Shown: in pieces, positions 2,668 through 50,400 of the stretch | How the letters are laid out: the number at the start of each line of letters is the position of its first letter | Numbering within the stretch: position 1 is the first letter of the stretch | DNA from: Methanofastidiosum sp. | GTDB lineage: Archaea; Methanobacteriota_B; Thermococci; Methanofastidiosales; Methanofastidiosaceae | Assembly (NCBI GenBank): GCA_020854815.1 | Contig: JAHKLW010000029.1 | Location: 21,821 to 85,820 of the forward strand | DNA length: 64,000 bases | Direction: 5' to 3' | Translations under genes and position numbers: made by a program | The notes under the pieces: generated by a model | Databases searched by the model: none | What the model saw: only the letters and a program-made list of their open reading frames with translations | Told to the model about the DNA's origin: nothing

Positions 2668-2842
2668 AGTCAGGGCACATCAATTCGCATAAGTGGCATC
2701 TAATACAATTTTCAGGAAACTTCACTTCAGGAGGAAATACTCCCTTTTTGCTCAGTTTTTCAGATTTAACGTAAACTTTTTTTGGACAATATTCCACACA
2801 CAAAAGACACCCTTTGCAGTAGTTTGTGTTGACATGAATCAA
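2633..2842 (-). CDS. 2-oxoacid:ferredoxin oxidoreductase, delta subunit (2x[4Fe-4S] ferredoxin)
   Basis: 69 aa with two CxxCxxCxxxCP motifs ('CKGCLLCVEYCP', 'CIRCHLCELMCP'). It is the first gene of the four-gene oxidoreductase operon. Confidence 0.8.
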   Translation of the reverse strand: MIHVNTNYCKGCLLCVEYCPKKVYVKSEKLSKKGVFPPEVKFPENCIRCHLCELMCPDFAIIVEDKNDK

Positions 2843-2960
2843 GAAATCACCATAATAATGTAGAAAAGAAATTTAAATCTTTTATAAACTTTATCATTAA
2901 AATGATTATTTCAACTTAAGCAAGAAAAATAATAGAGCATTTGTCCAATAAATGCTACTT

Positions 2961-4181: not shown

Positions 4182-4187
4182 ATCCTC

Positions 4188-5745: not shown

Positions 5746-5749
5746 TTGC

Positions 5750-6793: not shown

Positions 6794-6923
6794 TAAATTC
6801 CTCCTCCAACAAACACCGAGCTACTACAGATAAAAGAGATATAATTGGTATGATATAATAGATGGAAAATAAAATATATATAAATATTTCGGTATTAGTG
6901 AAATATTCTATCGGCAAGAAACG

Positions 6924-8441: not shown

Positions 8442-8443
8442 GA

Positions 8444-10867
8444 TTATACCCTCATTAAGATGATGTCCCTGATATTCTGATCCTTTTTACCTTTGAACGC
8501 ATCAAAGACTTCTCGCCTCTCCCTTCCTTTTGAGTTTCGGTATACAACTAGCCAGTAAGGAAGGTATACCTCTTCAGTTTTCCAGATTTTGGCATTGCCA
8601 AGAGTTTCCATCCCATTTGAAATGTCATTTTTTGAGATAAGTGATTCAATTACTTTTCCAGATATTTCCTTACTCTTAATGGATATATCCAGTTTTTTAA
8701 GTTTTTTATCCTCAAATCCCTTGACCAATTTAAATTTAATCTTTGGCTTGACACTGATGTTTCCGCCGTCCTGTTTATACGCAAGGAGCCCTCTTGCCTC
8801 AAGACTCGAGATTAAGGAATGTGTTTTTCTGGGGGTGAAACCAATATCTTTTTTTATCTCAGAGATTGTTGGATTTTCTCTGTCAATAAGATAATCCAAA
8901 AACCATTTTTCGTCCTTTTTAAGTTTGTAAATTTCAGAAAATCCTACAGTTCTGGAAATCTTTCCTTCCCAGATGACAAGCTCACCTGTAATGCCGTCAA
9001 AAAAGCATGACATGCTCTTGTAACTGCCCTTCTTTGGCATATAATCAAAAAGCACCATGACAAGTGGATAGTAGATAGGCACTACTTCTTGTATCTCCTC
9101 TGATTTAAGGGCTATCTTTTTCCGATTTTTAACTGCAATCTCTTTCATTGTGACATAGTCAATTTCACTGGATACCACAGGTGCTATTTTTATGCCCTTA
9201 AATGCAGCTTCTCTGCCCGGATCGTATTCAGTTTCGTATTCATCGACGAATTCAATTTCTTCCGAGAGATCTTCTTCCTCATCGATCATTGGTATATCAA
9301 TTACAACGGGCTTTGGTTCAGGCTTCGGTTTTATTTCCTCTTTAACATCAAATTCACCGTCAAGTCTTAGCTCTTCTATGATCTCCTCAAATGAGAACTT
9401 GAACTTGTATTCTTGATTTACTATCTTCACCACTTCCTCCATTTCGGCAAGCGGTCTCTTCTGCCTATACTTCTCAAGGATAAGATTCTTAATATTTGTC
9501 TTCATTAGCTCTGGATCGATATCAAGCATGGGCTGCCTTTCCCTTCCCTCATGCTGACTTATCCTTGGCCTTACTGAGAGCAAAAAAGCCCTGGATGTCG
9601 ACTCTTCCTTGTCTCCAATTATTGCACTCCCTATGGGTAGAGACCTTATGAATCTAAAATCAGAAAGTTTATTTGGGATTTCAGAGGGCATCCTCTGTAG
9701 GACTGCCTTGATATCGTCTTGGTAAACTAGTTTATGGCAGATGAGAAGGTCTACCTGGGACAATATTCTCGAATCGATTGCCGATGGCTGCTGTGTGGCA
9801 AGAACTATGGAGCATCCTGGCTGCCTTCCCTGTCTGACATACTCTATCAAGCTATCTGTTGCTGCTGTGGCCTTTCCTCCTCTCGGCACAAGTATGTGGG
9901 CCTCATCTATCATAAGCCACGTTACGGGCACGTTTCCAATGATATTAATGTCTCCCATAGCTTCCTGTCTTGCGATAACTTTTCTACTGTTCAAGATGTT
10001 CCTTGAAAGGAGCCCCACCACAAGTGCTCGGACATTGTCCTCTAGAAAGCTGACATCAATGACTGAAACTTGCCCCCTTTTTGACAGGTCATTTAGCTTT
10101 GTTCCATTCTTGTCAAATATCCCCCACTGGATAGCACCTGTAAGTCTTGCATTTAACGCCCTTCTTGTGTTCTCCTTGAATCCTCCGCCTCTTGAAGATA
10201 TGCTTTCATCGTTTTCGATAGTCTTTATCAAATCTTCAATGTCATATTCATCGCCAAGTCCGGCTACATGCTTTTCATCAATTGTTGTGTATCCAGACTT
10301 TGTTTTATCTATGACTCGCTCAATTAAGAGGCCCATAGTGTCAAATCGCTCAATATCAAAGGTAAGACACCAATCATCAACTCGGAGTTCTGAAGGTTTG
10401 ATTTTAAAGACATCATCCCACGTCTCTTTTGGCGCCTTGTGGACGTAACCTACTGGAATAAAGACCTTAACATTCTTAATGCCTGTAGGCTTTAATCCCC
10501 AGCGCTCAAGCAGATCAGCCTCGCTTGCAGTTTTGTTTTTTTGCTTCATGCTCCAGAAGATCCCCATCGGATCGATAATCATTATACCAACGGCATCATT
10601 TTTCATGGCCATCTCTTCAACAATGACGCCAAGAGTATAGGACTTACCGCTTCCTCTCATCCCACAGATGAATATTGCATGCGGGCTAATGCTGTCAAGA
10701 AGGACTTTTTTGTTGAAATAGTTCTCCCACTGCCTAGTAGTTTCATTTACCTTTCCGACATAGAGTGCAGCTTTGCTTTTATATTTCTCAAATGTGCTTT
10801 TTTTCCTACCTACATATACCCCTTCTAAATCAGAAAGGAGTTCCAGGTTTTCCTCAATATCAATCAT
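8444..10867 (-). CDS. HerA/FtsK-superfamily (DUF87-like) P-loop ATPase with C-terminal winged-helix domain
   Basis: Walker A is 'GMRGSGKSYTLG' near the N-terminus and Walker B is 'WLMIDEAHILVP' (DEAH-type, as in HerA). An acidic linker is followed by a wHTH-like 'TISEIKKDIGFTPRKTHSLISSLEARGLL'. The likely start is the internal Met 'MIDIEEN' at 10867, because the track start at 10951 would overlap the divergent TGT gene. Confidence 0.65.
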   Translation of the reverse strand: MIDIEENLELLSDLEGVYVGRKKSTFEKYKSKAALYVGKVNETTRQWENYFNKKVLLDSISPHAIFICGMRGSGKSYTLGVIVEEMAMKNDAVGIMIIDPMGIFWSMKQKNKTASEADLLERWGLKPTGIKNVKVFIPVGYVHKAPKETWDDVFKIKPSELRVDDWCLTFDIERFDTMGLLIERVIDKTKSGYTTIDEKHVAGLGDEYDIEDLIKTIENDESISSRGGGFKENTRRALNARLTGAIQWGIFDKNGTKLNDLSKRGQVSVIDVSFLEDNVRALVVGLLSRNILNSRKVIARQEAMGDINIIGNVPVTWLMIDEAHILVPRGGKATAATDSLIEYVRQGRQPGCSIVLATQQPSAIDSRILSQVDLLICHKLVYQDDIKAVLQRMPSEIPNKLSDFRFIRSLPIGSAIIGDKEESTSRAFLLSVRPRISQHEGRERQPMLDIDPELMKTNIKNLILEKYRQKRPLAEMEEVVKIVNQEYKFKFSFEEIIEELRLDGEFDVKEEIKPKPEPKPVVIDIPMIDEEEDLSEEIEFVDEYETEYDPGREAAFKGIKIAPVVSSEIDYVTMKEIAVKNRKKIALKSEEIQEVVPIYYPLVMVLFDYMPKKGSYKSMSCFFDGITGELVIWEGKISRTVGFSEIYKLKKDEKWFLDYLIDRENPTISEIKKDIGFTPRKTHSLISSLEARGLLAYKQDGGNISVKPKIKFKLVKGFEDKKLKKLDISIKSKEISGKVIESLISKNDISNGMETLGNAKIWKTEEVYLPYWLVVYRNSKGRERREVFDAFKGKKDQNIRDIILMRV

Positions 10868-10918
10868 GTTCACTAAAAAGATATAAAAAGTCCTATAATT
10901 AAAACCTTTTCGGATTAA
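10868..10918. promoter_or_regulatory. divergent intergenic promoter region with two TATA-like boxes ('tttttatat' / 'tcctataattaaaa')
   Basis: 51-bp AT-rich spacer between the divergent ATPase and TGT-like genes. TATA-like elements lie about 20-30 nt from each start codon, which suggests leaderless transcripts. Confidence 0.3.
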
Positions 10919-11956
10919 ATGGAAGCAATTTCTAGGATTAAGACAGCTCATGGAGACATCAAAACACCTGCGCTCCTCCCTGTCTGCGCACTTACCTATG
11001 GCGTCTGGGACGTTTTTATTGAAGAGAGAGTCATTCCCCCCTGGAAACTTTCTGAGGCCACACTTTTCTCTTTAGAGTATGTGAGAAACACAAAATATGA
11101 GGAAAAGGTCGTAAACGGGTTTCACAGGCTGTTTAAAGAAAAAAAGCCGATATTTGTTGATTCGGGCGGATTTCAATCAATGAAGAAAGGAATTGAGAGG
11201 GATCCTATTGATGTGCTTAGATTTCAGGAAAAGCTCAAAGCAGATGTTGCTGCAACATTTGATTATCCTGTGCCACTGAATGTTGAAAGGGCAGAGTATA
11301 TGCAGATGCTTCAGAAGAGTATTGACAGTGCGAATCTAACCCTTCAAAATAAAGAGAGAGAAGAGATGCTCCTATATTCATGTGTGCACGGATTTTCTAA
11401 AGAAGAGGTCGACTGGTACTTTTCAAAGCTTCGTGGTGGTTTTGACGGCTATGCGATGGGATCACTTGTCCCAAGAAAAAATGACTATAAGACCCTTATT
11501 GAGATTATCCATAGGGCCAAAATGCACGCTCATGAGCGAGAAAAGCCTCTCCATATTTTTGGGGTCACTGGGTTTCCAATGTTATATGCCTTGAGTTATA
11601 TGGGTGTTGAGACCATGGATTCGTGGACATACCTTGTTGCATCAATTTACAAGGAATACATACATCCAGAAACTTTAAAGAGAGTCAGGATGAGAAAAAC
11701 TGGGAGTATCCCTGAATGCGATTGCTTTATCTGCAAGGAGCTTGGGATGGAAGATTTTTTGGGAGCTACAAGTGTTCCCCAGGCTTATCTTGCAATTCAT
11801 AATTTGAATATCTTCATGCGTGAGATGAAACTGATAAAAGAGCACATGGATGAGAACAGCTTTGAAGAGCTAGTTCAACGTAAAAGTAAACAAAACATTC
11901 GAATAAAAAAAGTTTATGATTATGCTAAAGAACATATGAAAAACAATGTCTTATAG
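10919..11956 (+). CDS. tRNA-guanine transglycosylase family protein, archaeosine-TGT-like catalytic domain only (no C1/C2/PUA domains); DpdA-like candidate
   Basis: 345 aa. Has the substrate-Asp motif 'FVDSGGFQ', a catalytic-Asp region 'HIFGVTGFPMLYALSYMGVETMDSWTY' and Zn site 'CDCFICK...AIHNLN' (CxCxxC...H). Sequence strings resemble the catalytic domain of archaeal ArcTGT (for example 'IKTPALLPV'). Confidence 0.75.
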   Translation: MEAISRIKTAHGDIKTPALLPVCALTYGVWDVFIEERVIPPWKLSEATLFSLEYVRNTKYEEKVVNGFHRLFKEKKPIFVDSGGFQSMKKGIERDPIDVLRFQEKLKADVAATFDYPVPLNVERAEYMQMLQKSIDSANLTLQNKEREEMLLYSCVHGFSKEEVDWYFSKLRGGFDGYAMGSLVPRKNDYKTLIEIIHRAKMHAHEREKPLHIFGVTGFPMLYALSYMGVETMDSWTYLVASIYKEYIHPETLKRVRMRKTGSIPECDCFICKELGMEDFLGATSVPQAYLAIHNLNIFMREMKLIKEHMDENSFEELVQRKSKQNIRIKKVYDYAKEHMKNNVL

Positions 11957-11961
11957 CATAG

Positions 11962-12123
11962 CATAAAATATCTAGAAACAGGTTAGGAATACCTGACGTG
12001 ATAAAAGATAAACTATTTGACGAAGGGGTTAGCTACGCTAAAAATAAAGTGTTGGGCCTAGGTCTTTACATTATTAAAACGACAATTGAGAGATATTGGG
12101 GGCAAAACCACATTTTAGAATAA
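11962..12123 (+). pseudogene. C-terminal remnant of a histidine kinase (HATPase_c G2 box) without start codon
   Basis: A 53-codon open frame starts right after a stop codon. It reads 'KDKLFDEGVSYAKNKVLGLGLYIIKTTIERYWGQN', matching the HK consensus '...RIFE.F......GTGLGLSIVKRIVEAHGG'. There is no start codon or N-terminal portion. Confidence 0.35.
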
Positions 12124-12148
12124 TGCCCCCAAAGGCTCTATTTTTTTG
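12096..12148 (+). terminator. hairpin (9-bp perfect stem 'TTGGGGGCA'/'TGCCCCCAA', 19-nt loop) followed by T7 run
   Basis: The inverted repeat at 12096-12104 / 12124-12132 is followed by 'ggctctatttttttg' and lies downstream of the TGT-like gene. Archaeal terminators are usually oligo-T tracts. Confidence 0.4.
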
Positions 12149-12363
12149 AAATTGAAAAGTTTTTAAAAAATAGTTAGTTCTATATTTATTAACTACTAAA
12201 ATTTAATTAAACCTATACTTATTCTTTTATTGCATAGTTTTACTCAATATAAAATTTATCAAAATAATAGAAAGAAAAATAAATATGTTTATCCTATAAT
12301 TAATGGTAAATTATTAGATAATTTGCCCCAAAGAGGGAATAATGAGAAAGATAAATAAAAGAT

Positions 12364-12651
12364 TTAAGATTTGTGGATCTCGTATTTTATTATATCCTCA
12401 ATCTGAGTTTTTATGGAGTCAATAATTTTCTTTCTTAAGAATAGGCAGTCTGTAGATATCTCTTTTCTAATTTTTGGAAGTATTTCGTCGTTACATTCGT
12501 CTTTATACTGTTCTATCTTGAGAGAGATATAATTCAATTCTTTTTTTAGAGCTGAAACATCAACCCCTTGATCCTCTAGCTTCTTTATTGATAAATTAAA
12601 TTGAGAAAGGGTCTCCAATATCTCATTTAATCCTGAATTTTTTATTTCCAT
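12364..12651 (-). CDS. hypothetical coiled-coil protein
   Basis: 95-aa ORF with heptad-like charged/hydrophobic pattern. No recognisable domain. Confidence 0.35.
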   Translation of the reverse strand: MEIKNSGLNEILETLSQFNLSIKKLEDQGVDVSALKKELNYISLKIEQYKDECNDEILPKIRKEISTDCLFLRKKIIDSIKTQIEDIIKYEIHKS

Positions 12652-12835
12652 ACCTAATCATGCCTTAATACATTAAGTGGTCCGATCTTGGATATATTGC
12701 ACACAGGTATAATTCTATATAGAGATTATGTAATATAATAACACTACAAAGTAATGAAACAATGTTACATTAAAAGCTTATTGATGGTTAAAAATAAAAA
12801 AATGTAAAAAAGAAAACTATTATTTAAGTGAATGA

Positions 12836-13021
12836 TTACTTCTGTTCAATTTCGACGACTTCAGCTATTGGGGCATTCTTTTTGACACTTTCAATGCCGT
12901 TAAGACATGCTCTCTTTGTGGTGTAACCTTCGCCTGTTGCAATTATTTCCCCATTTCCAGCTTTTAATCTAAATCGAAATTGTTTTTTTGCGTCCGTATA
13001 TACCTCAAATTTTGCTGCCAT
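12836..13021 (-). CDS. DUF1508 (YegP-like) domain protein
   Basis: 61 aa, 'KFEVYTDAKKQFRFRLKAGNGEIIATGEGYTTKRACLNGIESVKKNA'. Matches the DUF1508 single-domain pattern. Confidence 0.65.
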   Translation of the reverse strand: MAAKFEVYTDAKKQFRFRLKAGNGEIIATGEGYTTKRACLNGIESVKKNAPIAEVVEIEQK

Positions 13022-13099
13022 GCTATCACCTACTATATAGTCTTCTTACTATTTAACGTTATTGATTTTTAAAATTAAAAAATTGGATTTCATTTAGAT

Positions 13100-13913
13100 T
13101 TAATTTGAGTTCATTTTTAAAATGAAATGAAAAAGAAAAGATTGTTTCCAGAGCCATCCTATTATGCCCTTGTTATTTAATTCTTCATCTGCTAATAGCT
13201 TAAGCCTTGACTGTTCCTGTTCTATGTTTTGAACTTGTTCCTGAAGGATAGCTTTTGTTTGAGTGTCAAAATCACTTTCTTCTATGAGTCTGTTTAGTTC
13301 CCTGATTCTGTTTTCATTTATTACAATCTCCTGCACTATGAGTCCCGCTGCTTCGTTGTCCCCGCCTGCAAAGAATTTGACAAATCCGCTTCTGCTTTGT
13401 ATCCTTTCTTCTGCCCTAGTTGTTATCTCAAAGGAATTTTTGATTTCATTTGATACCTTTGATATGTTTGCTTCTGATTTGCCAAACATAGGGGCTGTTG
13501 ATTCGATTGCCTGGACTGCAACTTGGGCCATCTTTTGGTTCTGTGGTAAGTTTGGCATTGTGGAGTTTACTTCTTGATTTATTTGTTGGATAACTGATCT
13601 GAACTGTTGTTCAGTGTTTGGCGCAATTTGATTTTGATTCTGAATATTCCGGGGGTTACTGCGACATTGCCTTCATTCTGAATAATTTGAGTTTGTTGCT
13701 GAACTTGGATATTGGATGTATTTCCTTTATTTGAAATTTGCTCTTGAACATTCAATTGATTAGCATTCTGAGTCGGAGTTACATTATTATTTGAATTTGA
13801 AAGATTTTTAGGGGATGTGTTTGTTTCTTTGTTTGACTCTTGATTATGTGGTGCTGCGGCATATGCTGAAGTGAAAAGAAATAAAATAATTAAAAGAATA
13901 AAGAGTTTTTCAT
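13100..13913 (-). pseudogene. secreted Q/N-rich coiled-coil protein gene interrupted by two homopolymer frameshifts (A5 at 13906-13910, C5/G5 at 13651-13655)
   Basis: The ATG at 13913 gives 'MKNSLFF*'. Adding one A would give 'MKKLFILLIILFLFTSAYAAAPHNQ...', a canonical signal peptide. The frame then runs about 85 codons ('...IIQNEGNVAVTPG'). After a 1-nt shift at the C5 run it continues in the frame of ORF 13100..13558 ('RNIQNQNQIAPNTEQQ...MPNLPQNQ'). Confidence 0.45.
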
Positions 13914-37142: not shown

Positions 37143-37697
37143 TTAGTATCGTTTATTTTTCTTAATTAATCTAAGTTGATTCCTCGTTTTAATTTCTCCT
37201 TTAATTAGCTTGGATTCACATTCTTTTCTGAAAGAATTATCGTTAATATCTAATAATTCTTTATATTTGTCCCAACTGATTTTTTCGTTTATAGATTCTA
37301 ACTTAGGATAAGTTGTTCTAAATTCAATTAAATAATTAATTTGTCTTGTAGATATTTCTAAATCTCTGGATAAAGCCTCTGTAATGTTGGCAAAGATAAA
37401 ATCTTTATTTTCTAAATCTTTTGCAAATCTGTAAATATTGTCCGCTAAATGCCATTTCAAAATTGAATTACCTCTAGATTTATTATTTTGTTGGGTTTTA
37501 TTGATAATATCTAATGATTTTATTATAAATTCTTGATACTTTGATTGAATTATAAAAGATTCTTTCTCTAAACTATTATTAGCAATTGCATGACTTAAGG
37601 ATATTTTAATTTTATAACTATTTTTTTCATCATTCGATTTATGAATCTCTATAGGAATTTTCATGCGGTTTGCCCCCTTAGTCTTATTTGATGCCAT
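37143..37697 (-). CDS. hypothetical protein (184 aa), downstream partner of the GHKL ATPase
   Basis: ORF overlaps the GHKL gene end; the likely start is 'MKIPIEIHK' at 37664. Has a possible HTH-like stretch 'EISTRQINYLIEF'. Confidence 0.35.
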   Translation of the reverse strand: MASNKTKGANRMKIPIEIHKSNDEKNSYKIKISLSHAIANNSLEKESFIIQSKYQEFIIKSLDIINKTQQNNKSRGNSILKWHLADNIYRFAKDLENKDFIFANITEALSRDLEISTRQINYLIEFRTTYPKLESINEKISWDKYKELLDINDNSFRKECESKLIKGEIKTRNQLRLIKKNKRY

Positions 37698-39220
37698 TTA
37701 GTCAATAAATCAGAGGTAAGTCTCTTCGAATTTTGTTCATCTACTTCATTGGCCACTATACCAAAAACAGTAGTTACTAAATGATACACCCTAACATGCT
37801 CTGCCCTAGATTCTTTAGATAGCCCGTCAGCAATTTTCCATGTAGGATGTGCGACATTAATTGTTATACTTTTACTAAGTGGATCTACCCATCCTTCGGA
37901 TAAGTTATCTGGTCTATCGTCATAGCTAATGCTAATTCCACCTTTGACTGTTCTTCTAATTCGTTCTATAGGAGTGTCGCCATCATCTTTATTTTCAACA
38001 ATCCCTTCTTTTTCTTCATCATCACCGATTGTGATGATTCCACCACCATGATGACTTCCTCCAATCGTTCCCCTTGTTGTTTGTCCACCAGTAGCAATAT
38101 TTCCTAATGATCCACCTTCATTTGATTTAATAGAAGTTTGTTTAGATATCAGATTTTGGAATAATTTGTCCGTGATATCATTAAACTCAGGCATTTTTAA
38201 AACATCGTTTATTGTTGATTCAACATCTTTATACAGTTTATCAATATCATCAACAGTAGTTTTTGGTTTTTGTATTGCTCCTACCTCTTGAAGCCATTTA
38301 CCAAAAATACCCCCTACTTTATTATGATAATGTTTCCAGAGCATAGAAGTTTTATCGAAATCTGATTTAGAAGTTCTTAGCACTCCAATCAAATAATCAG
38401 ATTTACATATGCCAGTTATACACTCTCCACATGAAGGATAAAGATTAAACCAAAAATTAGTCAATACTGTTTTCCCATGAACAACGACACTAATCCCTTG
38501 ATATTTTTCAGGTAACTTATCTTTAGTTTTATATACATATAGTATAGGATAATTATTTCCGATTTTAGTAGTAATTTTTTTAGTGGATTCTATATCCTCT
38601 TTTTTAGGCGCCCAACCTTCAATTAGTTTATCATTAACATATACTTTTTTAACATTATAATGTCCTAAAAGGATAGTATTGTAATTATCCAATAACGCAT
38701 TCTCAACAAATTCTTGATTAAAGTTTTTTTTGTCTTCTGGATGTTTTATTTTAACTTCTACATAAGTTCCATTTGATTTTAATTTATTAGAAGTTTCAAT
38801 AATCTTCCATTCAGGTATTTTTTCAATGAATTGCCAAAATGAAGCTCCTTTGAATTTTTCAGATTTCGTTTCAGTTATAATATATTCCGCTCTGTCTAAA
38901 TAAGTTTTTGCACCGACTCCTGCAAATCCAATTCCCTCACCTTTAGTTTTTGTTAATGATGCGATGTTGTGATATTGAGAAAACTGAAATTCATTCATTC
39001 CACAACCATTATCTATTACAATGAATTTATCTTTTTCAATGCATATTCTAATTTCTGTAGCCTTCGCGTCTATTGAATTGGCAAATGTTTCAACAATTAA
39101 GGCAGTGAGTGGATCGTAGGGAAATTGATCTCTAAAATCTATTATTAATTTTTTCCAATCACTTATCATGGACTGACGTATTTCTCCAACTTTCCAATTT
39201 TGACTCATTATAATCCCCAA
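37661..39220 (-). CDS. GHKL-superfamily ATPase (HATPase_c_3, MORC/MutL/Hsp90-like Bergerat fold)
   Basis: N-box 'ETFANSIDAKATEI', G1 box 'VIDNGCGMNE' and G2 box 'GEGIGFAGVGAKTY'. The C-terminal part is Gly-rich. Confidence 0.65.
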   Translation of the reverse strand: MGIIMSQNWKVGEIRQSMISDWKKLIIDFRDQFPYDPLTALIVETFANSIDAKATEIRICIEKDKFIVIDNGCGMNEFQFSQYHNIASLTKTKGEGIGFAGVGAKTYLDRAEYIITETKSEKFKGASFWQFIEKIPEWKIIETSNKLKSNGTYVEVKIKHPEDKKNFNQEFVENALLDNYNTILLGHYNVKKVYVNDKLIEGWAPKKEDIESTKKITTKIGNNYPILYVYKTKDKLPEKYQGISVVVHGKTVLTNFWFNLYPSCGECITGICKSDYLIGVLRTSKSDFDKTSMLWKHYHNKVGGIFGKWLQEVGAIQKPKTTVDDIDKLYKDVESTINDVLKMPEFNDITDKLFQNLISKQTSIKSNEGGSLGNIATGGQTTRGTIGGSHHGGGIITIGDDEEKEGIVENKDDGDTPIERIRRTVKGGISISYDDRPDNLSEGWVDPLSKSITINVAHPTWKIADGLSKESRAEHVRVYHLVTTVFGIVANEVDEQNSKRLTSDLLTKWHQIRLRGQTA

Positions 39221-39341
39221 AATTATTTTAAATTACAATCGATTTATTATCATTTTTCATATATAAGGATATGGAAAAAAATATGGGAAATAGAGAAAAA
39301 AATTTCTTTTCCATTGGAAAATTCACAAGCAATCATATTTA

Positions 39342-39695
39342 TTACTCCTTGGAAACTTCTTCCCATGATTTCATAGAAAGAGCCTCTTCCTCTTCCATTC
39401 TTCGCTCGTGCTGCTTTCTTGATTCCTCTATTTTTCGTCTCCTCTGTTCTTCATTCGCCAGGTATTGTTTGTAGCCATCAGGATCTAGCTCTGTGTAAAT
39501 CTCCTTGAAATCTAGAGGGTATTGATCCTTTTTTGATTCATAACTCATGCCTGCAATATAGTTAAGCTTTTCGCCTGATATCGCCCGCTCAAGAAACATC
39601 AGATCCTGAATATACTTGGCATTCTCATCATTATACTCCAATCCTTTCAGTTTGTTTCTAACATATCCAGTTTTAATATTCTTAAAATCTGTCAT
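39342..39695 (-). CDS. hypothetical charged protein (117 aa)
   Basis: Lies between the P-loop ATPase and GHKL genes in the same orientation. The C-terminus is very E/R/K-rich. Confidence 0.3.
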   Translation of the reverse strand: MTDFKNIKTGYVRNKLKGLEYNDENAKYIQDLMFLERAISGEKLNYIAGMSYESKKDQYPLDFKEIYTELDPDGYKQYLANEEQRRRKIEESRKQHERRMEEEEALSMKSWEEVSKE

Positions 39696-40634
39696 TCACT
39701 CATCCTCATGCATCCTACTCACAATCTGATTTCTGACTTCATCCAAATTATTTCGATTTTTCTTTATATTAAATTGAATCATCTTAATCTCATCCTCAAT
39801 ACTCATAATCTGCTCCTTGATTGACTTTATTTCTTCTTCTTTTAGACCACCTGCTTCAGATTCCTTTAATCTTTGTTCTTTTAATTCAAATTTGGCCCTT
39901 AGCATTTCTAACTGTTTCTCCCTCTTCATCATTTCATGGATTAGCTGCCTCTCCATTATATGTAGGTCCTCACTGGGGTCATTTTGGATTTCAATCATTT
40001 TGAAATTTTTTATCCACGGTTCGTAGGAGTACCCATCAGAGGAAAGCGATGTTATTATTATTTGCTCTTTTCTATCCAAAAGGTATTTCAAGAAAACAAC
40101 ACTTGCATCGTGATCAAGTCTTTCAAGTCCCTCATCAATCAAGATACACCCCCCATTCAAATTGATTCTTTCCCCGTAGACTTCACAGGTAAGTTTGTCT
40201 ATCTGGTTAAAGGTGATTTTTATCTCCTCAGGCCCACCAAGGTAGTCCTCATAGGAGAAATCCTTTAGGCTATGGCTATTATCAAAGAACAGGAGGATGG
40301 ATCTTACAATTGTAGTTTTCCCAGATGCAGTGCCCCCTACCATCATGTTATTCTGCTCAAAATCGATATCTATTTTTTTTAGAAATCTGTGATTGTCTAT
40401 TTTTATTTTACTTATCTTGAAAGGTATCCTGTATGCAAGCCCCTTCTTTCTAAGATTCTCAAGGTATTTTGACGGATCAAACCTCTTGTTGTATCCGTTT
40501 ATATTCAATTTTGTCTTGATGGCCTCCTCTGCAAGCTCTGATATATTGAAATTCATCTCTTTTGCCAGCTCCACTAGATTCTCATCAAGGTAGAGCAGGG
40601 TATTTTTCTTAGTTGATTTAGATTTCTTATCCAT
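39696..40634 (-). CDS. P-loop NTPase with N-terminal RHH/HTH-like segment and C-terminal coiled coil
   Basis: Walker A 'GGTASGKTT' and Walker B 'CILIDEGLERLD', with a C-terminal heptad-rich coiled coil of about 110 aa. Confidence 0.5.
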   Translation of the reverse strand: MDKKSKSTKKNTLLYLDENLVELAKEMNFNISELAEEAIKTKLNINGYNKRFDPSKYLENLRKKGLAYRIPFKISKIKIDNHRFLKKIDIDFEQNNMMVGGTASGKTTIVRSILLFFDNSHSLKDFSYEDYLGGPEEIKITFNQIDKLTCEVYGERINLNGGCILIDEGLERLDHDASVVFLKYLLDRKEQIIITSLSSDGYSYEPWIKNFKMIEIQNDPSEDLHIMERQLIHEMMKREKQLEMLRAKFELKEQRLKESEAGGLKEEEIKSIKEQIMSIEDEIKMIQFNIKKNRNNLDEVRNQIVSRMHEDE

Positions 40635-40758
40635 ACTTTACATATGGACATATGGATATTTAAGGTTATCTGTTTATAAAAATTAAATTCAGGCATAGAG
40701 CTAAAAATTAGTAACATAGCATCAATCCAATATATCAGAAATTGGCTTATGCCCTTAA

Positions 40759-41151
40759 CTACTTTTGATTTATCTCCTGAAGAACTGAAATCTCAAACTT
40801 GAGGCGATTTATCTCTGCATTCAAGGAGTCAATCCTTATATTCTGATCCAATATCGTTCCGTTTTTTGAAATGACTAAATCGTTTAGTCTTAGATTATCC
40901 TCTGAAAGCCTTCTATACGAATCCTTTAGAGCCTCAGCCTCTGAATCTGTCAGGCTGCATCCACCTATCTTGACAGTAGGCTTTTGGGCAGGCTGTTCTG
41001 AACTGCTCTGGGTAGTTGTGGTAGGTGTATAGCTATTTTGAGAGGGGTTTGCTATCGCGCTACCGACAAAAAGCCCTATTATAAATCCAATTAACATTAG
41101 AATCACAGCTATTTTAGTTATGTCATTAGTTGCCTCCATAATCACGCCCAT
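40759..41151 (-). CDS. membrane-anchored coiled-coil protein
   Basis: N-terminal TM helix 'IAVILMLIGFIIGLFVGSAIA', a Thr/Ser/Gln-rich linker and a coiled coil. Confidence 0.4.
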   Translation of the reverse strand: MGVIMEATNDITKIAVILMLIGFIIGLFVGSAIANPSQNSYTPTTTTQSSSEQPAQKPTVKIGGCSLTDSEAEALKDSYRRLSEDNLRLNDLVISKNGTILDQNIRIDSLNAEINRLKFEISVLQEINQK

Positions 41152-41243
41152 TGAAAAGACCTCCCTACAATATCTTCACTATTGTTTTGTATTTGTCCTT
41201 TATAAAAATATGGAAAAATATCAAAAGAAAAAAGTAAGGCCAG

Positions 41244-41429
41244 TTATTTCCTGTATTCAACTGCCCCGCCGATTGCCGCACCCATTGCAATACCAATACC
41301 TATGCCAATAGATAATCCAATTGCAATGTCTTTAATTAAAATCCCGACTATAACTCCAAGGACAGCACCCGCTCCAAATCCAATAGAAACGCCCAGCGCC
41401 ATCCTGTTCTTCTTTTCTTCCATAGGCAA
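41244..41429 (-). CDS. small glycine-zipper membrane protein
   Basis: 61 aa with two hydrophobic GxxxG-rich segments. Confidence 0.35.
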   Translation of the reverse strand: MPMEEKKNRMALGVSIGFGAGAVLGVIVGILIKDIAIGLSIGIGIGIAMGAAIGGAVEYRK

Positions 41430-43960: not shown

Positions 43961-44521
43961 CTATTTTGACTTTGAATCTCTCTTCTTCCCTTCACGATTG
44001 CACCCATAATGGTCATATCCGTCCCTATCATAGCCATCCTTGTCAAAGCCGCTGTACGCATATTTTGTCCCGTTTCTGTGAAGGCCGTTCCTATCAAATC
44101 CATTTTTGTCATAACCCTCTTTGTCAAAGCCTTCTTTGTCCCGGCCGAATCTGTCATATCCGCTTCTGTTATACCCTGCCCCATCAAATCCCTTGTCATC
44201 ATATCCGTCTTTGTCAATATTCTGAAAGTTAAATTTCCTGCCTGTGTATCTATGGATCCCCTGTTTGTTGAAGTCACTTTTATCAAAGCCCGCTTTGGAA
44301 TATCCAGATCTGTTGTAGCCCTCTCTGTCATAGCCAAGCTTATCATAGCCTTCCAAGTCATAGCCATGCTTGTCAAAGCCGTCTTTAGAATAGCCGCCGC
44401 TATCAAAAACTTCTGTATCAGAAATAGTCTCTAGATAAACATTGCATATAGGGCATTTTTCTATTTCCTTGACAAATTTAATCCCGCAGCTTGGGCATTT
44501 TTTGCCTAAAATATCGGACAT
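43961..44521 (-). CDS. N-terminal zinc-ribbon protein with about 20 tandem 'G(Y/F)D(K/R)xG' pentapeptide-like repeats
   Basis: 'CPSCGIKFVKEIEKCPICN' is followed by 'GYSKDGFDKHGYDLEGYDKLGYDREGYNRSGYSKAGFDK...GYDRDGYDHYG'. The three overlapping ORFs in other frames are repeat artefacts. Confidence 0.5.
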   Translation of the reverse strand: MSDILGKKCPSCGIKFVKEIEKCPICNVYLETISDTEVFDSGGYSKDGFDKHGYDLEGYDKLGYDREGYNRSGYSKAGFDKSDFNKQGIHRYTGRKFNFQNIDKDGYDDKGFDGAGYNRSGYDRFGRDKEGFDKEGYDKNGFDRNGLHRNGTKYAYSGFDKDGYDRDGYDHYGCNREGKKRDSKSK

Positions 44522-44775: not shown

Positions 44776-45930
44776 GTGGAAGAAGAATACTATAAAGATG
44801 CATTTGGTAAAATAGAGGCGGCAAAGGGTGAGGCCGGTAAAGAATACAACGTATTTATACCAAATCCCTTGCCCCCTAAGATTGAGTTTGACCAGGAGCT
44901 CGTCTTGATACTGTCAAAGGCTGAAGAGAAGCTAGGAAAGCTATCTGGTGTTGGTTTATCTCTTCCAAGCCCTAATCTACTGATCATTCCCTACCTTAGA
45001 AAAGAAGCTATAATGAGTACAAGAATAGAAGGTACAAGAATCTCTCTGCAGGAAGTATTGCTTTCAGAGACTAAAGAGGGGGAAGAAAAGACGCCTGATG
45101 CGAAAGAGGTAATAAATTACATCAACACGGTAAACTATGCTTTAAAACATGTTGAAGATAATCAGATTGATTTAAGCCTTATAAAAAAGATGCACAAAAT
45201 ACTGATGGGGGGCGTAAGAGGGGATGAGAAGTCTCCTGGAAAATTTAGAGATGTGCAGAACTGGATTGGATCAGAATTTTCTAACGTATCAGACGCCATC
45301 TTTGTTCCGCCAAATCCCGAAGCCGTTCCAAAATTGATGGATGACCTAATAGATTACCTAAATACGGAGCACAATATTCCAGTTCTAGTAAGATGCGCAT
45401 TGATGCATTACCAGTTTGAGACCATCCACCCATTCTGTGATGGCAATGGCAGGATAGGGCGAAGCCTGATATCAGTTTATTTGTGCAAAAAGAAGAAGAT
45501 AATAAAACCATTACTATATATCAGTGAATTTTTTGAAAAGTATAGGCTTAATTACAATGAACTCTTGCTTAAAACTGGGCAGACGGGAAAATTTGAAGAG
45601 TGGATCAAATTCTTCTTAAAGGCCATTGAAGTTCAATCTGAAGATGCCCTGTTAAGGGCGCATAAACTCCTTCTGCTAAGAGAATCTTATAGGAAGCGGA
45701 TACAAAATGAAACACAGACCTCTGAGATTCTAAACATAATAGACTACTTGTTTTCTAATCCATTTGTTACAGTTGCTAAGGCTGGAAAGGTATCGGCCGT
45801 TACCTATCCCACAGCAAAGAGGTATATCGATAAATTAATCAAATATGGAATATTAAAGGAAACAAAACATCTGCAGAGAGAAAGAACTTATGTTGCCCAT
45901 GAGATCTACGAGATAATAAAAGAGATTTAA
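44776..45930 (+). CDS. Fic/DOC family protein (Fic domain + C-terminal winged helix)
   Basis: Canonical Fic motif 'HPFCDGNGRIGRSL'. GTG start in the ORF track; 384 aa. Confidence 0.8.
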   Translation: MEEEYYKDAFGKIEAAKGEAGKEYNVFIPNPLPPKIEFDQELVLILSKAEEKLGKLSGVGLSLPSPNLLIIPYLRKEAIMSTRIEGTRISLQEVLLSETKEGEEKTPDAKEVINYINTVNYALKHVEDNQIDLSLIKKMHKILMGGVRGDEKSPGKFRDVQNWIGSEFSNVSDAIFVPPNPEAVPKLMDDLIDYLNTEHNIPVLVRCALMHYQFETIHPFCDGNGRIGRSLISVYLCKKKKIIKPLLYISEFFEKYRLNYNELLLKTGQTGKFEEWIKFFLKAIEVQSEDALLRAHKLLLLRESYRKRIQNETQTSEILNIIDYLFSNPFVTVAKAGKVSAVTYPTAKRYIDKLIKYGILKETKHLQRERTYVAHEIYEIIKEI

Positions 45931-46825: not shown

Positions 46826-49800
46826 TTGAAATCTGATTTACTTACTGAATTAAACTCCCAACAGAGGAAGGCCGTTGAATCAACAGAAGGGCCAATACTA
46901 ATCATTGCCGGTGCTGGTAGCGGAAAAACTGGCGTTATAACAAAAAAGATTGCCTACCTCGTAGAGTCAGGGATACCTCAGGAGAATATTCTGGCTCTGA
47001 CATTTACAGACAAAGCTGCAGCTGAGATGCTTGACAGGGTGAACAAGCTTGTTGGCTCGACAGAGGATATAATCATAACAACATTCCACTCATTTTGCAA
47101 AGAGTTAATTGAAGATAATATCTTAGAACTCAAAATGAACTCCCCACTAAAGGTCATAGAGGATACGGCGCAACTAGTGTGGTTTATCAAAAACATAGAT
47201 TCGTTCAATCTTGAATTCATCAAAGTCGGGTTTAAGCCCGTCACTTTAGTTGAAGAGCTAAGAAAGATTATCTCAAAGTTTAAGGATGAGTTTGTTACAA
47301 TTGAAAAGCTTGAAAATTATATCGAAAACAAATCAGAAGAAAAACTAGACCTTGAAAACTACGAGCGACTTGAAACTCTAAAGGATATCCTAAAGGCCTA
47401 CAAATTCTATGAGGATTACAAGGCGAAAAATAATCTCGTGGATTTCGGGGACATGCTTACAAAAATCTATGAGCTTTTTAAAACTAGACCAACTATCCTA
47501 AAAAAGTACCAGGAGAGGTTTAAGTACATACTCATAGATGAGTTCCAGGATACAAACTTCATCCAGCTTCAAATTGTAAATCTTATAGCAGGAAAACACC
47601 AGAATCTCACAGTCGTTGGTGACGATGACCAGAGCATATACCGGTTTAGGGGTGCATACCTCACAAACATCTCTGAGTTTAGGCAAACTTACCCCTCCCA
47701 TCAAGAAATCGTCCTGGAGCAGAACTACCGAAGCACCAAGAAAATCTTGAGCGTTTCAAACAAATTAATATCGAACAAGCCTGATAGATTTGTGAAGAAG
47801 CTTTTCACAGAAAATGAGGAGGGTGAAAAGGTAACGGTGGCCCGGCTTGAAAATGAAGAGGAGCAGTCGCACTTCACATTAAATCAAGTTGAAACTCTTT
47901 TGAAGGACCATGACTATAAGGACATTGCCATCCTAGTTAGAAGGAAAAAGGATGCGCAGCCAATAATAGACACATTTGACAAGCACAAGATGCCCTACGA
48001 GTTTGTCGGGAACTCTGATTTCTTCAGAGAGCCGCTGATAAAGGATGTCGTCTCATTTATCAAAATCGCATCAAAACCTATTGAGTCAAACATTGAGATA
48101 GCAAGGGTCCTGCAAAGAAAGCAGAGCTCGATAAGACCAGTTGAAGTAACTAGATTCACAAGGTATGCCTACAAGAACAAGTTAAGCCTATATGAAGCGT
48201 TTGATAAGATTAAAGAAATAGATATAGAACAGGAAAAGTTTAATCACATAAAAGAAAAGCTAAACTTGATAGTATCACAAAAAAAGGTCCTTAATCTTCC
48301 TGAGTTAATTTACAAGATCCTCTTTGATATTGATTTTTACAGGTATGAGTTAAGCCTTAATAACAAGAGGAACATATCGCTTCTAAATCAGTTCTATAAG
48401 TTCACAGTTGACTACTATAATCTTTACAGGGATAGCGAGCTAGAAGATTTTATTGATTTTATTAATTACGCATCAAACTTTGAGATAAAGACCGAGACTG
48501 GAGAGGAAAATAACGTCATCCAGATCATGACTATACACACTGCAAAGGGCAAGGAATTCCCGGTCGTCATTGTCCCAGACCTTGTGAGCGGCAAGCTTCC
48601 AACAAGATATAGGAGTGACAAGTTTGAAATTCCAAGAGAGCTACTAAACGGAGCAGAGAGCGAGTTTGATGAGAGGGAGCTGCACCTGCAAGAAGAGCGG
48701 CGCCTGTTCTATGTTTCTATGACCCGTGCTATGAAAAAGCTTTTTATAACATATGCCAATAGGTACGGCGATAACAAACGTGATTCAAAAGCAAGCCAGT
48801 TTCTTGAGGAAATAGAATATACAAAAAATCCCGATATAAATTTCCTGACTCCAAAGACAGATCCCATCTCAATAAAGGAAGATTCGGTCAAGGGGTTAAT
48901 AAGGCAGAACTATATCGGTGAGATAATATCGGATCTCCATAGAAAGGATTACAGAGGGATTATACCAAAGCTCATGCTCCTAGAAAAGCTAGAGGGGAAT
49001 GATCACAAATCAATTGTCCAAAATCTAAAGGAGCTTGACTACGATGCGATACTAAAGCAGATAGAGGATGGCGAGATAAAAAAGGAAAAGATTATAGAAG
49101 AGGAGCTGACATTTTCAGCCTCACAGTTTAACACCTATAAGAGGTGCCCAAGGATTTACAAGTATAACTATGTATACAGGATCCCTACACTCCCAAAGCC
49201 TTACTTTGATTTAGGTGGCACTGTCCACAGCGTCATTGAGGAGCTCTCTAAAAAAATAATGGAAGGGGAATCCATAGATCTAGAGCTTGCAATAAAATAC
49301 CTTGATGCCTTCTGGAAGAGCAGCGGGTATTCAACAGAGCTAGAGGAAAAGCAGGCAAAGAAAGATGCGATTGATATTTTAGAGATATTTCTTAGAGAGC
49401 AGGAAAAGATGGATACAAAGATAGTTGAAACAGAAAAAAGATTTACAATAAAGCTTGATGAATACAGCATAAACGGGGTTATTGATAGAGTTGATAAGGA
49501 TGGAAATGAGTACATAATCTGGGACTATAAGACCTCTAAGACCCCTATTTCAGAAAGCGATCTAAGACGAGACATTCAGCTTTTAACTTACGACATGGCA
49601 GTAAAAGAGCTTTTTGGGAAGAGGCCAAAACAGGTGGGGCTATGGTATTTACGGCAAAACAAGAAGGTCGCTATTCAACCAAAGGATGAGGATATTGAAA
49701 AGATAAAACAAGAACTCCTTGAGACAATAAACAGGATAATGAATGAGGAATTTGATCCAAAGGCAGGCTGGGAGTGCTACAACTGTGACTATGCTCTACT

Positions 49801-49828
49801 GTGCGATCTTAAGGAGAAGAGTGTATGA
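46826..49828 (+). CDS. UvrD/PcrA-type SF1 helicase fused to C-terminal Cas4/RecB-like PD-(D/E)xK Fe-S nuclease (AddA-like architecture)
   Basis: Helicase motifs: I 'AGAGSGKTGV', II 'DEFQDTN', III 'VVGDDDQSIYRFRGA', IV 'LEQNYRST'. C-terminal nuclease 'IIWDYKTSK' with four Cys ('CPRIY', 'CYNCDYALLC'). Confidence 0.8.
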   Translation: MKSDLLTELNSQQRKAVESTEGPILIIAGAGSGKTGVITKKIAYLVESGIPQENILALTFTDKAAAEMLDRVNKLVGSTEDIIITTFHSFCKELIEDNILELKMNSPLKVIEDTAQLVWFIKNIDSFNLEFIKVGFKPVTLVEELRKIISKFKDEFVTIEKLENYIENKSEEKLDLENYERLETLKDILKAYKFYEDYKAKNNLVDFGDMLTKIYELFKTRPTILKKYQERFKYILIDEFQDTNFIQLQIVNLIAGKHQNLTVVGDDDQSIYRFRGAYLTNISEFRQTYPSHQEIVLEQNYRSTKKILSVSNKLISNKPDRFVKKLFTENEEGEKVTVARLENEEEQSHFTLNQVETLLKDHDYKDIAILVRRKKDAQPIIDTFDKHKMPYEFVGNSDFFREPLIKDVVSFIKIASKPIESNIEIARVLQRKQSSIRPVEVTRFTRYAYKNKLSLYEAFDKIKEIDIEQEKFNHIKEKLNLIVSQKKVLNLPELIYKILFDIDFYRYELSLNNKRNISLLNQFYKFTVDYYNLYRDSELEDFIDFINYASNFEIKTETGEENNVIQIMTIHTAKGKEFPVVIVPDLVSGKLPTRYRSDKFEIPRELLNGAESEFDERELHLQEERRLFYVSMTRAMKKLFITYANRYGDNKRDSKASQFLEEIEYTKNPDINFLTPKTDPISIKEDSVKGLIRQNYIGEIISDLHRKDYRGIIPKLMLLEKLEGNDHKSIVQNLKELDYDAILKQIEDGEIKKEKIIEEELTFSASQFNTYKRCPRIYKYNYVYRIPTLPKPYFDLGGTVHSVIEELSKKIMEGESIDLELAIKYLDAFWKSSGYSTELEEKQAKKDAIDILEIFLREQEKMDTKIVETEKRFTIKLDEYSINGVIDRVDKDGNEYIIWDYKTSKTPISESDLRRDIQLLTYDMAVKELFGKRPKQVGLWYLRQNKKVAIQPKDEDIEKIKQELLETINRIMNEEFDPKAGWECYNCDYALLCDLKEKSV

Positions 49829-50400
49829 CGTATCTTTTCATTGACACAGAGACTACCGGCCTTCCAAGGAAAAGGTATGCCCCTTATACCGATACGAATA
49901 ACTGGCCAAGGCTCGTCCAGATTGCCTGGCTCTACTGTGACCAGAACGGAGAAATATTGTCCTCAGAAGAGTACATAATTAAACCGGAAGGTTTTGTCAT
50001 CCCATTTGATTCTCAGAATATACACGGAATATCAAATGAGCGAGCCCATATGGAAGGAAAAGAACTGATATATGTCTTGAACAGATTCTCTGAATTTTTG
50101 AACAGATCAAATTACCTAGTTGCCCATAACATCGATTTTGATTTCAATGTGATAGGGGCAGAGCTTGTTAGAAAAGGCATTAACACTAGATTAAACTCCA
50201 TCAATAGATTCTGCACGATGGTTGGCACAACGGAATATTGCCAGATCCCAGGTGGCCAGTATGAGTTTAAGTGGCCAAGTCTTTTTGAACTTTATTACAC
50301 CTTATTTAATCAAACTTTTGAAGAAAAGCATGATGCCCTTTATGATGTAAAAATTTGCAGAGAGTGCTTCTTTGAGTTAAAGAAAAGAGGAATTATATAA
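49825..50400 (+). CDS. DEDDh 3'-5' exonuclease (DnaQ/epsilon-like)
   Basis: Exo I 'LFIDTETTGL', Exo II 'HNIDFDFNVI', Exo III 'HDALYDVKICRE'. Overlaps the helicase-nuclease gene by 4 nt. Confidence 0.7.
   Translation: MTYLFIDTETTGLPRKRYAPYTDTNNWPRLVQIAWLYCDQNGEILSSEEYIIKPEGFVIPFDSQNIHGISNERAHMEGKELIYVLNRFSEFLNRSNYLVAHNIDFDFNVIGAELVRKGINTRLNSINRFCTMVGTTEYCQIPGGQYEFKWPSLFELYYTLFNQTFEEKHDALYDVKICRECFFELKKRGII

Follow-up and report, generated by a model that had tools for sequence, protein, structure and literature searches.

A GHKL ATPase with a constant small partner and a separate ribbon-helix-helix ATPase pair in a putative composite defence island of Methanofastidiosum

GHKL ATPases of the MORC and paraMORC groups occur in restriction-modification (R-M) operons, and the MORC proteins are marked by an S5 signature (GhXhhpXXRhl) and by a neighbouring superfamily 2 (SF2) helicase in about 70% of their loci (Iyer, Abhiman and Aravind 2008, PMC2292703). 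A GHKL ATPase is likewise the N-terminal module of VcSduA, an anti-phage protein of Shedu type I-D/paraMORC3, where it is combined with a DUF4263 PD-(D/E)xK nuclease and with a clamp-like middle domain that has been proposed to act as a gate (PMC12137116). Here we examine a GHKL ATPase gene and its neighbours in a 64,000-nucleotide stretch of DNA, referred to below as the window, from a metagenome-assembled genome of Candidatus Methanofastidiosum (contig JAHKLW010000029.1). An earlier note on this DNA had read four adjacent minus-strand genes as a single operon built around a MORC-like GHKL ATPase, which might form one larger system with a converging methyltransferase/PLD-SNF2 helicase module. 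Our analysis revealed that the four genes are two separate two-gene modules, since they do not co-occur elsewhere, are divided by a spacer that contains a TATA box, and differ in base composition across a sharp step.

The first pair (37143-39208) consists of the GHKL ATPase and a small basic protein, the second (39342-40634) of a 312-residue and a 117-residue protein. When 185,579 species, each represented by one genome, were scanned with the GHKL alignment, 125 relatives of the GHKL protein were obtained, spread over many phyla, and 80 loci were kept; the neighbourhood counts given here cover 83 non-redundant GHKL loci, and individual loci carry handles beginning with L. A homologue of the small partner lies directly downstream of the GHKL gene, on the same strand, in 53 of the 83, from Bathyarchaeia to Dehalococcoidia and Nitrosopumilus, and this adjacency reaches GHKL relatives of only 24-30% identity (Dehalococcoidia, Nitrosopumilus, Micrarchaeota). 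By contrast, none of the 83 loci has a homologue of the 312-residue or 117-residue protein, or of the 130-residue protein encoded next to them, and no 312/117 locus other than the window has a GHKL gene, so that the window is the only place where all four genes were found together. The same pattern holds among close relatives: on the contigs with three close GHKL homologues a protein of about 175 residues directly follows the GHKL gene each time and the 312/117 pair never appears, and at L008 a GHKL protein 81% identical to that of the window stands without the pair. Within the window, the two pairs are separated by a 133-nt spacer containing T-runs and a TATA box, and GC content at third codon positions (GC3) steps from 0.40 to 0.20 exactly at this junction (0.40-0.43 in the 312/117 pair; 0.18-0.24 in the genes for the GHKL protein, its partner, the methyltransferase and PLD-SNF2). 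The idea that the helicase and the methyltransferase belong to one larger system with these genes fares no better, as L090 has a 93%-identical PLD-SNF2 together with a methyltransferase and no GHKL gene nearby, and PLD-SNF2 is present in just one of the 83 GHKL loci (L071). What did survive from the earlier note is its view of the 30.2-40.7 kb region as a composite defence island; we take the island, with middling confidence, to consist of three independent modules (a 312/117 'leader' pair, the GHKL pair and the methyltransferase/PLD-SNF2 pair), an arrangement that resembles the 'embedded defence system' pattern (Payne et al., 10.1101/2024.01.29.577857).

The four minus-strand open reading frames (ORFs) were all found where the earlier note had placed them, and none is a chance ORF, because each has conserved homologues (Table 1). 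Exact database copies exist for three of the proteins, P0001 (515 residues), P0121 (173 residues) and P0143. The length of P0001, together with homologues that align from the same methionine, sets the start of the GHKL gene, and the length of P0121 sets that of the partner. With these starts, the partner's ATG overlaps the GHKL stop codon as ATGA; the overlap that had been described thus stands, but not its length of 37 nt, which arose because the longest ORF was taken. As had also been proposed, the GHKL pair converges tail-to-tail on the PLD-SNF2 gene (end at 37085), with a 57-nt spacer between them.

Table 1. Genes, sequence elements and cargoes; positions refer to the window unless a locus handle precedes them.
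Feature	Position	Strand	Details
GHKL ATPase gene	37661..39208	-	515 aa from ATG at 39208; longest ORF 39220..37661 (519 aa), TTG start at 39220
GHKL partner gene	37143..37664	-	173 aa from ATG at 37664; longest ORF 37697..37143, 184 aa
117-aa gene	39342..39695	-	ORF listing, 39695..39342
312-aa gene	39696..40634	-	ORF listing, 40634..39696
Eco57I/MmeI-type methyltransferase gene, 1218 aa	30263..33919	+	neighbour, outside both pairs
PLD(HKD)-SNF2 helicase gene, 1057 aa	33912..37085	+	neighbour, outside both pairs
Candidate operator CATATGTCCATATG	40641..40654	-	two CATATG palindromes 2 nt apart
Junction element	39259..39316	-	after the 117-aa stop, about 60 nt: AATGGAAAA, phased T-tract repeats, TTTTTCCATATCC, TATA box
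TATA box TTATATAT	39266-39259	-	end of junction element
GGGG Shine-Dalgarno-like run	39217-39214	-	ahead of GHKL ATG
Second T-tract/CCATAT/TATA copy	41201-41218	-	50-67 nt upstream of 130-aa gene; 81% identity over 31 nt
Eco57I/N6_Mtase-type gene, about 1083 aa	L050 6712-9963		ends just before GHKL
Eco57I/N6_Mtase-type gene, about 1083 aa	L063 6702-9959		ends just before GHKL
Eco57I/N6_Mtase-type gene, about 1083 aa	L067 5390-9963		ends just before GHKL
Cargo after 312/117 pair, window			GHKL ATPase and partner
Cargo after 312/117 pair, L090			Eco57I methyltransferase-DUF365-PLD-SNF2
Cargo after 312/117 pair, L092			UvrD-PDDEXK, N6_N4 methyltransferase, ResIII
Cargo after 312/117 pair, L094/95			DISARM-like set
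Cargo after 312/117 pair, L096			DEAD-MZB helicase set
Cargo after 312/117 pair, L100			two methyltransferases and 222-aa gene

The membership of the ATPase in the GHKL superfamily is clear. The Bergerat motifs I (ExxxNxxD), II (DxGxG), III (the Gly-rich lid) and IV (GT) are all present, with residues E40, N44, D47; D66, G68, G70; G94-K101; and G147-T148 invariant in an alignment of 30 sequences, so that the three motifs quoted in the earlier note are real and lie in invariant columns. Pfam HATPase_c_3, the profile suggested there as a check, scores 37.1 bits (cut-off 25) and HATPase_c 27.0 (cut-off 26.4). An AlphaFold 2 model (overall pLDDT 75.7) divides the protein into a GHKL plus Hsp90-like middle domain (1-353), a disordered linker (354-423; 21% Gly, pLDDT below 50) and a small C-terminal domain (424-515) in which three strands are combined with three helices. 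In this model a beta-rich domain (188-269) and adjoining helices align with the N and M domains of Hsp90, and the invariant lysines K246 and K281 are candidates for the basic transducer residue that reaches ATP. The best 50 solved structures found with Foldseek were all N+M regions of Hsp90, TRAP1 or GRP94 (E about 1e-13, TM 0.37-0.45), while by sequence the sole match in the PDB was the motif I-II region (residues 37-77) to MutL/PMS2 (E 4e-4), and NCBIfam returned a sacsin-like ATP-binding domain at 30 bits. Neither the GHKL protein nor its partner has a recognisable nuclease or other effector domain. The conserved residues of the C-terminal domain (E438, D442, N451, H454, K458, Y475, H476) fit neither an HNH nor a PD-(D/E)xK pattern, and for this reason no nuclease is claimed.

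Measured against MORC and paraMORC, the protein shares a GHKL domain with all ATP motifs, a putative transducer-type domain following it and a family-specific C-terminal extension, and its genes are likewise sporadic, laterally transferred in bacteria and archaea and sometimes found adjoining DNA methyltransferases. The S5 motif, however, is not kept: the hairpin at this position reads QGISVVVHGKTV (consensus QGPxIVVxGKTV), with invariant K246 in place of the arginine and the polar position occupied by a hydrophobic residue, and no Pfam match to a MORC S5 model was obtained. Nor do SF2 helicases recur nearby (one of the 83 loci besides the window, versus about 70% for MORC; UvrD_C was seen in two of 125 flanking proteins), no nuclease is fused or adjacent, and the constant partner is a small, predicted helix-turn-helix (HTH) protein that is absent from the description in PMC2292703. 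The label 'MORC-like' therefore holds for a GHKL ATPase with intact motifs but not for the S5 signature or the helicase neighbours, and the nearest solved folds belong to the Hsp90 family.

The other GHKL families are similar in part. With MutL the protein has in common a three-part layout, in which a long disordered linker connects an N-terminal GHKL plus putative transducer unit to a C-terminal domain; it is nevertheless no housekeeping MutL, scoring 22.7 bits against an equivalog cut-off of 180 (NCBIfam TIGR00585), with other MutL models lower still, and its C-terminal domain is only about 90 residues long, lacks the DQHA(X)2E(X)4E endonuclease motif and has no MutS partner. The Hsp90 family (HtpG, TRAP1, GRP94) provides the best structural match, covering both N and M domains, but sequence identity is just 10-15%, the C-terminal domain differs, and the gene here is rare and accessory with a basic, HTH-like partner. 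The likeness to VcSduA lies in the use of a GHKL ATPase as the N-terminal module; the window protein, however, has no recognisable nuclease and no PADLOC Shedu match.

Turning to the second pair, the 312-residue protein was borne out as a combination of an N-terminal ribbon-helix-helix (RHH) segment, a P-loop NTPase and a C-terminal coiled coil. Residues 9-44 form a CcdA-type RHH domain (PF07362, 22.4 bits, exactly the Pfam cut-off), an assignment accompanied by a palindromic site in the gene's own promoter, and distant homologues of 217 residues carry PF07362 too. The head is a minimal ABC/SMC-like P-loop unit (AAA_15 28.7 and AAA_23 26.2 bits, both below the Pfam cut-offs) with Walker A GGTASGKTT, Walker B CILIDE and no clear signature motif, and the coiled-coil tail spans about 215-312. 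A sequence search of the PDB gave no match. PADLOC models for GajA, AriA and mad3 were matched mainly over the N-terminal P-loop region; most matches to Gabija, PARIS and Septu cover only the P-loop head, about 50-80 residues of models of 400-750 positions, while a few enter the coiled-coil tail, and an assignment to the ABC ATPases of these systems was rejected, no Toprim or nuclease having been found in the 312- or 117-residue protein. The 117-residue protein is charged (pI 5.3) and without a match in Pfam, PADLOC, NCBIfam, PHROGs or the PDB. Copies of it, 73-74% identical, directly follow every 312-residue homologue in L090-L096, and in L100 the 117-aa gene again directly follows the 312-aa gene. 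Among 21 homologues of the 312-residue protein, the closest 11 (50-100% identical, about 300-320 residues) hold every one named Methanofastidiosum; the pair is specific to this group and has a host-like base composition.

What follows the 312/117 pair is different each time. Each of the six informative contexts has its own cargo, located downstream of the pair on the same strand, and five of these cargoes are recognisable restriction or defence cassettes (Table 1). At the junction GC3 drops from 0.37-0.49 to 0.18-0.27 in each context measured (L090, L092, L094, L096), much as in the window. Furthermore, the PLD-SNF2 proteins of the window and L090 share 93% identity, whereas the 312-residue proteins of the same two loci share only 57%; cargo therefore moves between diverged leader pairs, and does so faster than these diverge.

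Two sequence elements flanking the pair are conserved as well. The junction element that follows the 117-aa stop codon is kept in all five aligned contexts, and similarity stops right after its TATA box. On the other side, conservation reaches no further than about 45 nt upstream of the 312-aa gene's ATG, and two CATATG palindromes separated by 2 nt sit between a TATA-like box (about 40655-40664) and that ATG. The CATATG-N2-CATATG arrangement occurs once in the 64-kb window, both strands considered (0.05 matches expected), recurs at the same position in L090-L096, and is absent from the remainder of the 1.5 Mb of DNA retrieved. This site and the TTTTTCCATAT element are candidate binding sites for the RHH domain. 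A search for repeats bounding the island, between 29.9 and 41.5 kb, found nothing but the duplicated promoter element, whose second copy lies upstream of a gene for a 130-residue membrane/coiled-coil protein (40759-41151). That protein has a weak PHROG match of superinfection-exclusion type (3e-4), and the second copy is preceded by a small ORF on the minus strand (about 41245-41421) whose Gly-rich sequence looks like that of a membrane protein.

Regulators that stand ahead of many different defence systems include the WYL-type BrxR/CapW proteins of bacteria (winged HTH-WYL) and the controller proteins of R-M systems. The 312/117 pair, as a putative regulator, resembles these in lying upstream, on the same strand, of six cargoes, in encoding a domain of DNA-binding type and in having a palindrome within the promoter from which it is read; it differs in its RHH, ABC-type ATPase and coiled-coil architecture and in its restriction to one archaeal lineage. 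We also weighed the alternative that the pair is a stand-alone defence or toxin-antitoxin-like module that happens to share its location with other systems, which it would neither regulate nor anchor. Autoregulated toxin-antitoxin modules typically combine a CcdA-type RHH domain with a palindrome in the module's own promoter, the head of the ABC ATPase is similar to GajA, AriA and PtuA, defence genes lie on both sides of the pair in L092, L096 and L102, and ABC ATPase pairs are a common defence theme (Payne et al. 2024, 10.1101/2024.01.29.577857). Set against this are the invariable position of the pair ahead of a large cassette on the same strand (6/6 informative contexts), the run of conserved sequence through a TATA box that faces the cassette and its abrupt end there, and the lack of a toxin domain, as well as of a nuclease, in either protein. 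On balance we consider a stand-alone module unlikely.

The GHKL pair has a very different distribution. Among 8,000 candidates scored, 282 homologues of the ATPase were identified, of which the best 120 are mostly 500-530 residues long and 41-81% identical, with none specifically named; at E<=1e-30 there are 176 clusters in 1.84 billion representatives. Identities of 45-50% between proteins of Methanofastidiosum, Bathyarchaeia and Acidobacteriota imply transfer. Neither the ATPase nor its partner has a specific family in PADLOC, NCBIfam or PHROGs, and no description of the pair was found in the searchable literature or in PADLOC 2.0, NCBIfam or PHROGs. The wider neighbourhood is inconstant: a Pfam census of 125 flanking proteins gave 186 families and no recurrent partner, although some loci are flanked by defence genes (type IIG and type II R-M, AbiE, LmuB, MADS and PDC candidates). 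A three-gene variant occurs in 19 bacterial loci (L021 12041-13822 and 18 others; Dehalococcoidia and others), in which the pair is followed by a gene for a protein of about 520 residues with a sigma-70 region 4 domain (Pfam, 68 bits). As part of the composite-island reading, and with the same middling confidence, we regard the GHKL pair as a self-contained, horizontally mobile two-gene module of archaea and bacteria.

The 173-residue partner is basic (pI 9.5), and its AlphaFold 2 model (pLDDT 92.3) is all-helical with an N-terminal beta-hairpin. A stretch conserved in an alignment of 21 sequences, LSRDLGISxRQVNYLIEF, has an HTH-like look. Against the folds of the PDB its top 13 matches are all ParB, Noc or Spo0J, at weak scores (E 0.16-0.8; best local match 6y93_B, TM 0.60), and against BFVD its top match is a phage 'chromosome partitioning protein' (E 0.05, probability 0.91). 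Because two independent structure libraries thus place ParB/Noc-type proteins first and the protein is basic, we predict, from sequence and model, that the partner is an HTH DNA-binding protein. The CTP-binding GERRxRA box of ParB is absent from the 21-sequence alignment; an N-x-K-x-R-G motif at 60-65 is conserved, but in a secondary-structure context unlike that of GERRxRA. A sequence search of the PDB was empty. The partner also weakly matches the N-terminal helical domain of the DUF1016/YhcG family (Pfam DUF1016_N 21.4 bits, and 29.2 for the homologue in L001, both below the cut-off of 32.8; PADLOC candidate PDC-S02, 3e-6), but it ends at 173 residues, without the PD-(D/E)xK nuclease half.

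These matches raise the question of whether the GHKL pair serves not immunity but nucleoid or mobile-element maintenance, with a ParB-like binder and an ATPase acting in the partition or silencing of an integrated element. The ParB/Noc-type folds would suit such a module, as would the low GC3 of the pair, its lack of a recognised effector domain and the tyrosine recombinases that immediately precede the pair in L071 and lie 2.5 kb ahead of it in L008. Those two, however, are the only distinct loci of the 83 with a recombinase near the pair, and recombinase linkage was rejected as a general feature. Moreover, no GHKL relatives were found in an alignment scan of 2.9 million viral contigs, a tblastn search of plasmids gave only partial matches (<=45% of the protein) to unrelated ATPases, the ATPase is of GHKL rather than ParA type, and the partner alignment has no GERRxRA motif. 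A maintenance role is thus unlikely in our judgement.

The methyltransferase and PLD-SNF2 genes that converge on the GHKL pair have their own relationships. The 1218-residue protein is an N6-adenine methyltransferase (Pfam Eco57I 100 bits; PADLOC REase_MTase_IIG 1e-53; GC3 0.21), 64% identical to the gene product in L090, with which it also shares upstream sequence containing a TATA-like run that we read as its own putative promoter. The 1057-residue protein combines PLDc_2, SNF2-rel_dom and Helicase_C (Pfam) and matches the PADLOC models 'HKD+Snf2' (5e-46) and DrmD (4e-43); it is likely to be the restriction subunit of the methyltransferase. Two known systems were considered and rejected. PLD-SNF2 matches HmaA of Hma (1.7e-34), but the methyltransferase is of Eco57I/N6-adenine type and the GHKL protein has no HmaC match (PADLOC; PMC8565338), and for DISARM, which is defined by the helicase DrmA, DrmB (DUF1998), DrmC and a methyltransferase, there are only partial DrmD-like and DrmMI-like matches, below the NCBIfam cut-offs (177 versus 610). 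No DrmA- or DrmB-type gene was seen in the list of ORFs for 28-44 kb, of which eight were covered by domain searches. In L090 a DUF365 gene (12266-12694) lies between the methyltransferase and PLD-SNF2 genes; it is absent in the window, where those two overlap.

A link between methyltransferases and GHKL genes, as the earlier note had supposed, does exist, albeit a facultative one: in three bacterial loci (L050, L063 and L067; Eisenbacteria, Planctomycetota, Brocadiia) an Eco57I-type methyltransferase gene lies directly upstream of the GHKL gene on the same strand, split over two ORFs in L067, and these loci possibly hold a methyltransferase-GHKL-HTH operon. SF2 helicases, the other half of that supposition, are not regular neighbours. 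In L071 (Nitrosopumilus; 2554-13679), a tyrosine recombinase, GHKL and partner genes lie between a PLD-SNF2/methyltransferase pair and a 496-residue Eco57I/TaqI_C fragment, an arrangement that may stem from insertion of the element into a methyltransferase gene, or from rearrangement of such a gene by it.

The three bacterial loci and the renewed proximity of the GHKL pair to PLD-SNF2 and a methyltransferase in L071 could be taken to favour the view that all four genes are after all one operon, which might form a single restriction system of MORC type with the methyltransferase and PLD-SNF2; so could the shared strand and close spacing of the four genes, the presence of the 312/117 pair ahead of the same methyltransferase/PLD-SNF2 type in L090, and the known place of MORC/paraMORC in R-M operons (PMC2292703). 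Against it stand the counts reported above (312/117 in 0/83 and PLD-SNF2 in 1/83 GHKL loci), the closely related PLD-SNF2 system of L090 that does without a GHKL gene, the T-runs and TATA box of the spacer, the sharp GC3 step, and the association of the 312/117 pair with five other cassettes, which together make one operon very unlikely. Least credible of all, at the margin of what we would consider, is a specialised Hsp90-like chaperone and co-chaperone with a housekeeping or stress function, to which the Hsp90/TRAP1/GRP94 folds, the sacsin-like match and the many housekeeping genes flanking the pair might point, given that relatives number only 125 in the species scan and are spread patchily across domains at the identities noted above, that GC3 is far below the host level, that the partner is basic and HTH-like, and that no Pfam HSP90 family match was obtained at E<=0.1.

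Defence or conflict genes extend beyond 30.2-40.7 kb, as shown by a UvrD-PDDEXK helicase-nuclease of 1000 residues (46826-50400; 82% identical to the copy in L090) followed by an RNase T-type exonuclease, and by a Fic-domain protein (44776-45930). Between these and the leader pair, a minus-strand gene (43961-44521) encodes a 186-residue protein with a zinc-ribbon-like CPxC...CPxC start and many G[YF]D(K/R)xG repeats, for which no Pfam match was found.

In the composite-island reading, the 312/117 pair would be a resident leader that marks, and perhaps controls, a slot in which low-GC defence cassettes are exchanged. Through the CATATG-N2-CATATG site, the RHH domain probably represses the pair's own promoter, and the T-tract/TATA element after the 117-aa stop codon would read into whatever lies downstream. 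In the window genome this slot would be filled by the GHKL pair, upon which a separate R-M-like system, the methyltransferase and PLD-SNF2, would have converged by chance. Slot equivalence with the five cassettes, sporadic cross-domain transfer and the occasional defence neighbours are our reasons for suggesting a role of the GHKL pair in defence. The basic, HTH-like partner may bind DNA and recruit or activate the ATPase, which might in turn close around the DNA as an ATP-dependent clamp and so block or compact invading DNA, or pass it to other nucleases; the clamp is proposed because the domain order follows the MutL layout, and from the established behaviour of MutL, Hsp90 and MORC ATPases.

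Several points weigh against this picture. The 312/117 contexts number seven and all come from one genus-level lineage. The low GC3 of the cargoes could result from a bias of their gene class instead of recent transfer. The junction element is also present before the GHKL gene in L008, where there is no 312/117 pair, and before other genes of the island, and may thus be a cassette-associated or lineage-typical promoter that is no target of the 312-residue protein. Many genes that flank the GHKL pair elsewhere are housekeeping genes (Fer4 proteins, GcpE, tRNA synthetases), the resemblance of the partner to ParB/Noc is weak (E 0.05-0.8), and the clamp as effector is a conjecture, because no effector domain was recognised.

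Taken further, the two pairs can be joined in a bolder proposal, which we put forward tentatively and think rather improbable: that the 312/117 pair serves exchangeable defence cassettes of archaea as a docking-and-control module, in which a signal sensed by the RHH-ABC ATPase would lead it to activate the system that happens to lie downstream, and that the GHKL/HTH pair is a nuclease-free immune or silencing system, which would clamp foreign DNA in an ATP-gated manner and would be a prokaryotic functional counterpart of eukaryotic MORC silencing on an Hsp90/MutL-like scaffold.

For the interpretation of such islands, the window illustrates that genes of a defence island can adjoin on one strand without forming an operon. 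Where GHKL ATPases are known from restriction and Shedu systems of bacteria, a nuclease or a helicase accompanies them, whereas the family described here has a fixed layout of 500-540 residues, a constant small partner predicted to bind DNA, and no recognisable effector; if the GHKL pair protects cells, its mechanism would lie outside current catalogues. The leader pair, a by-product of checking the operon, may be the more useful lead. Its promoter facing six cargoes suggests a class of regulator not yet described in archaea, and the 312/117 pair offers a simple handle for finding archaeal defence systems, since whatever follows it in Methanofastidiosum is a candidate.

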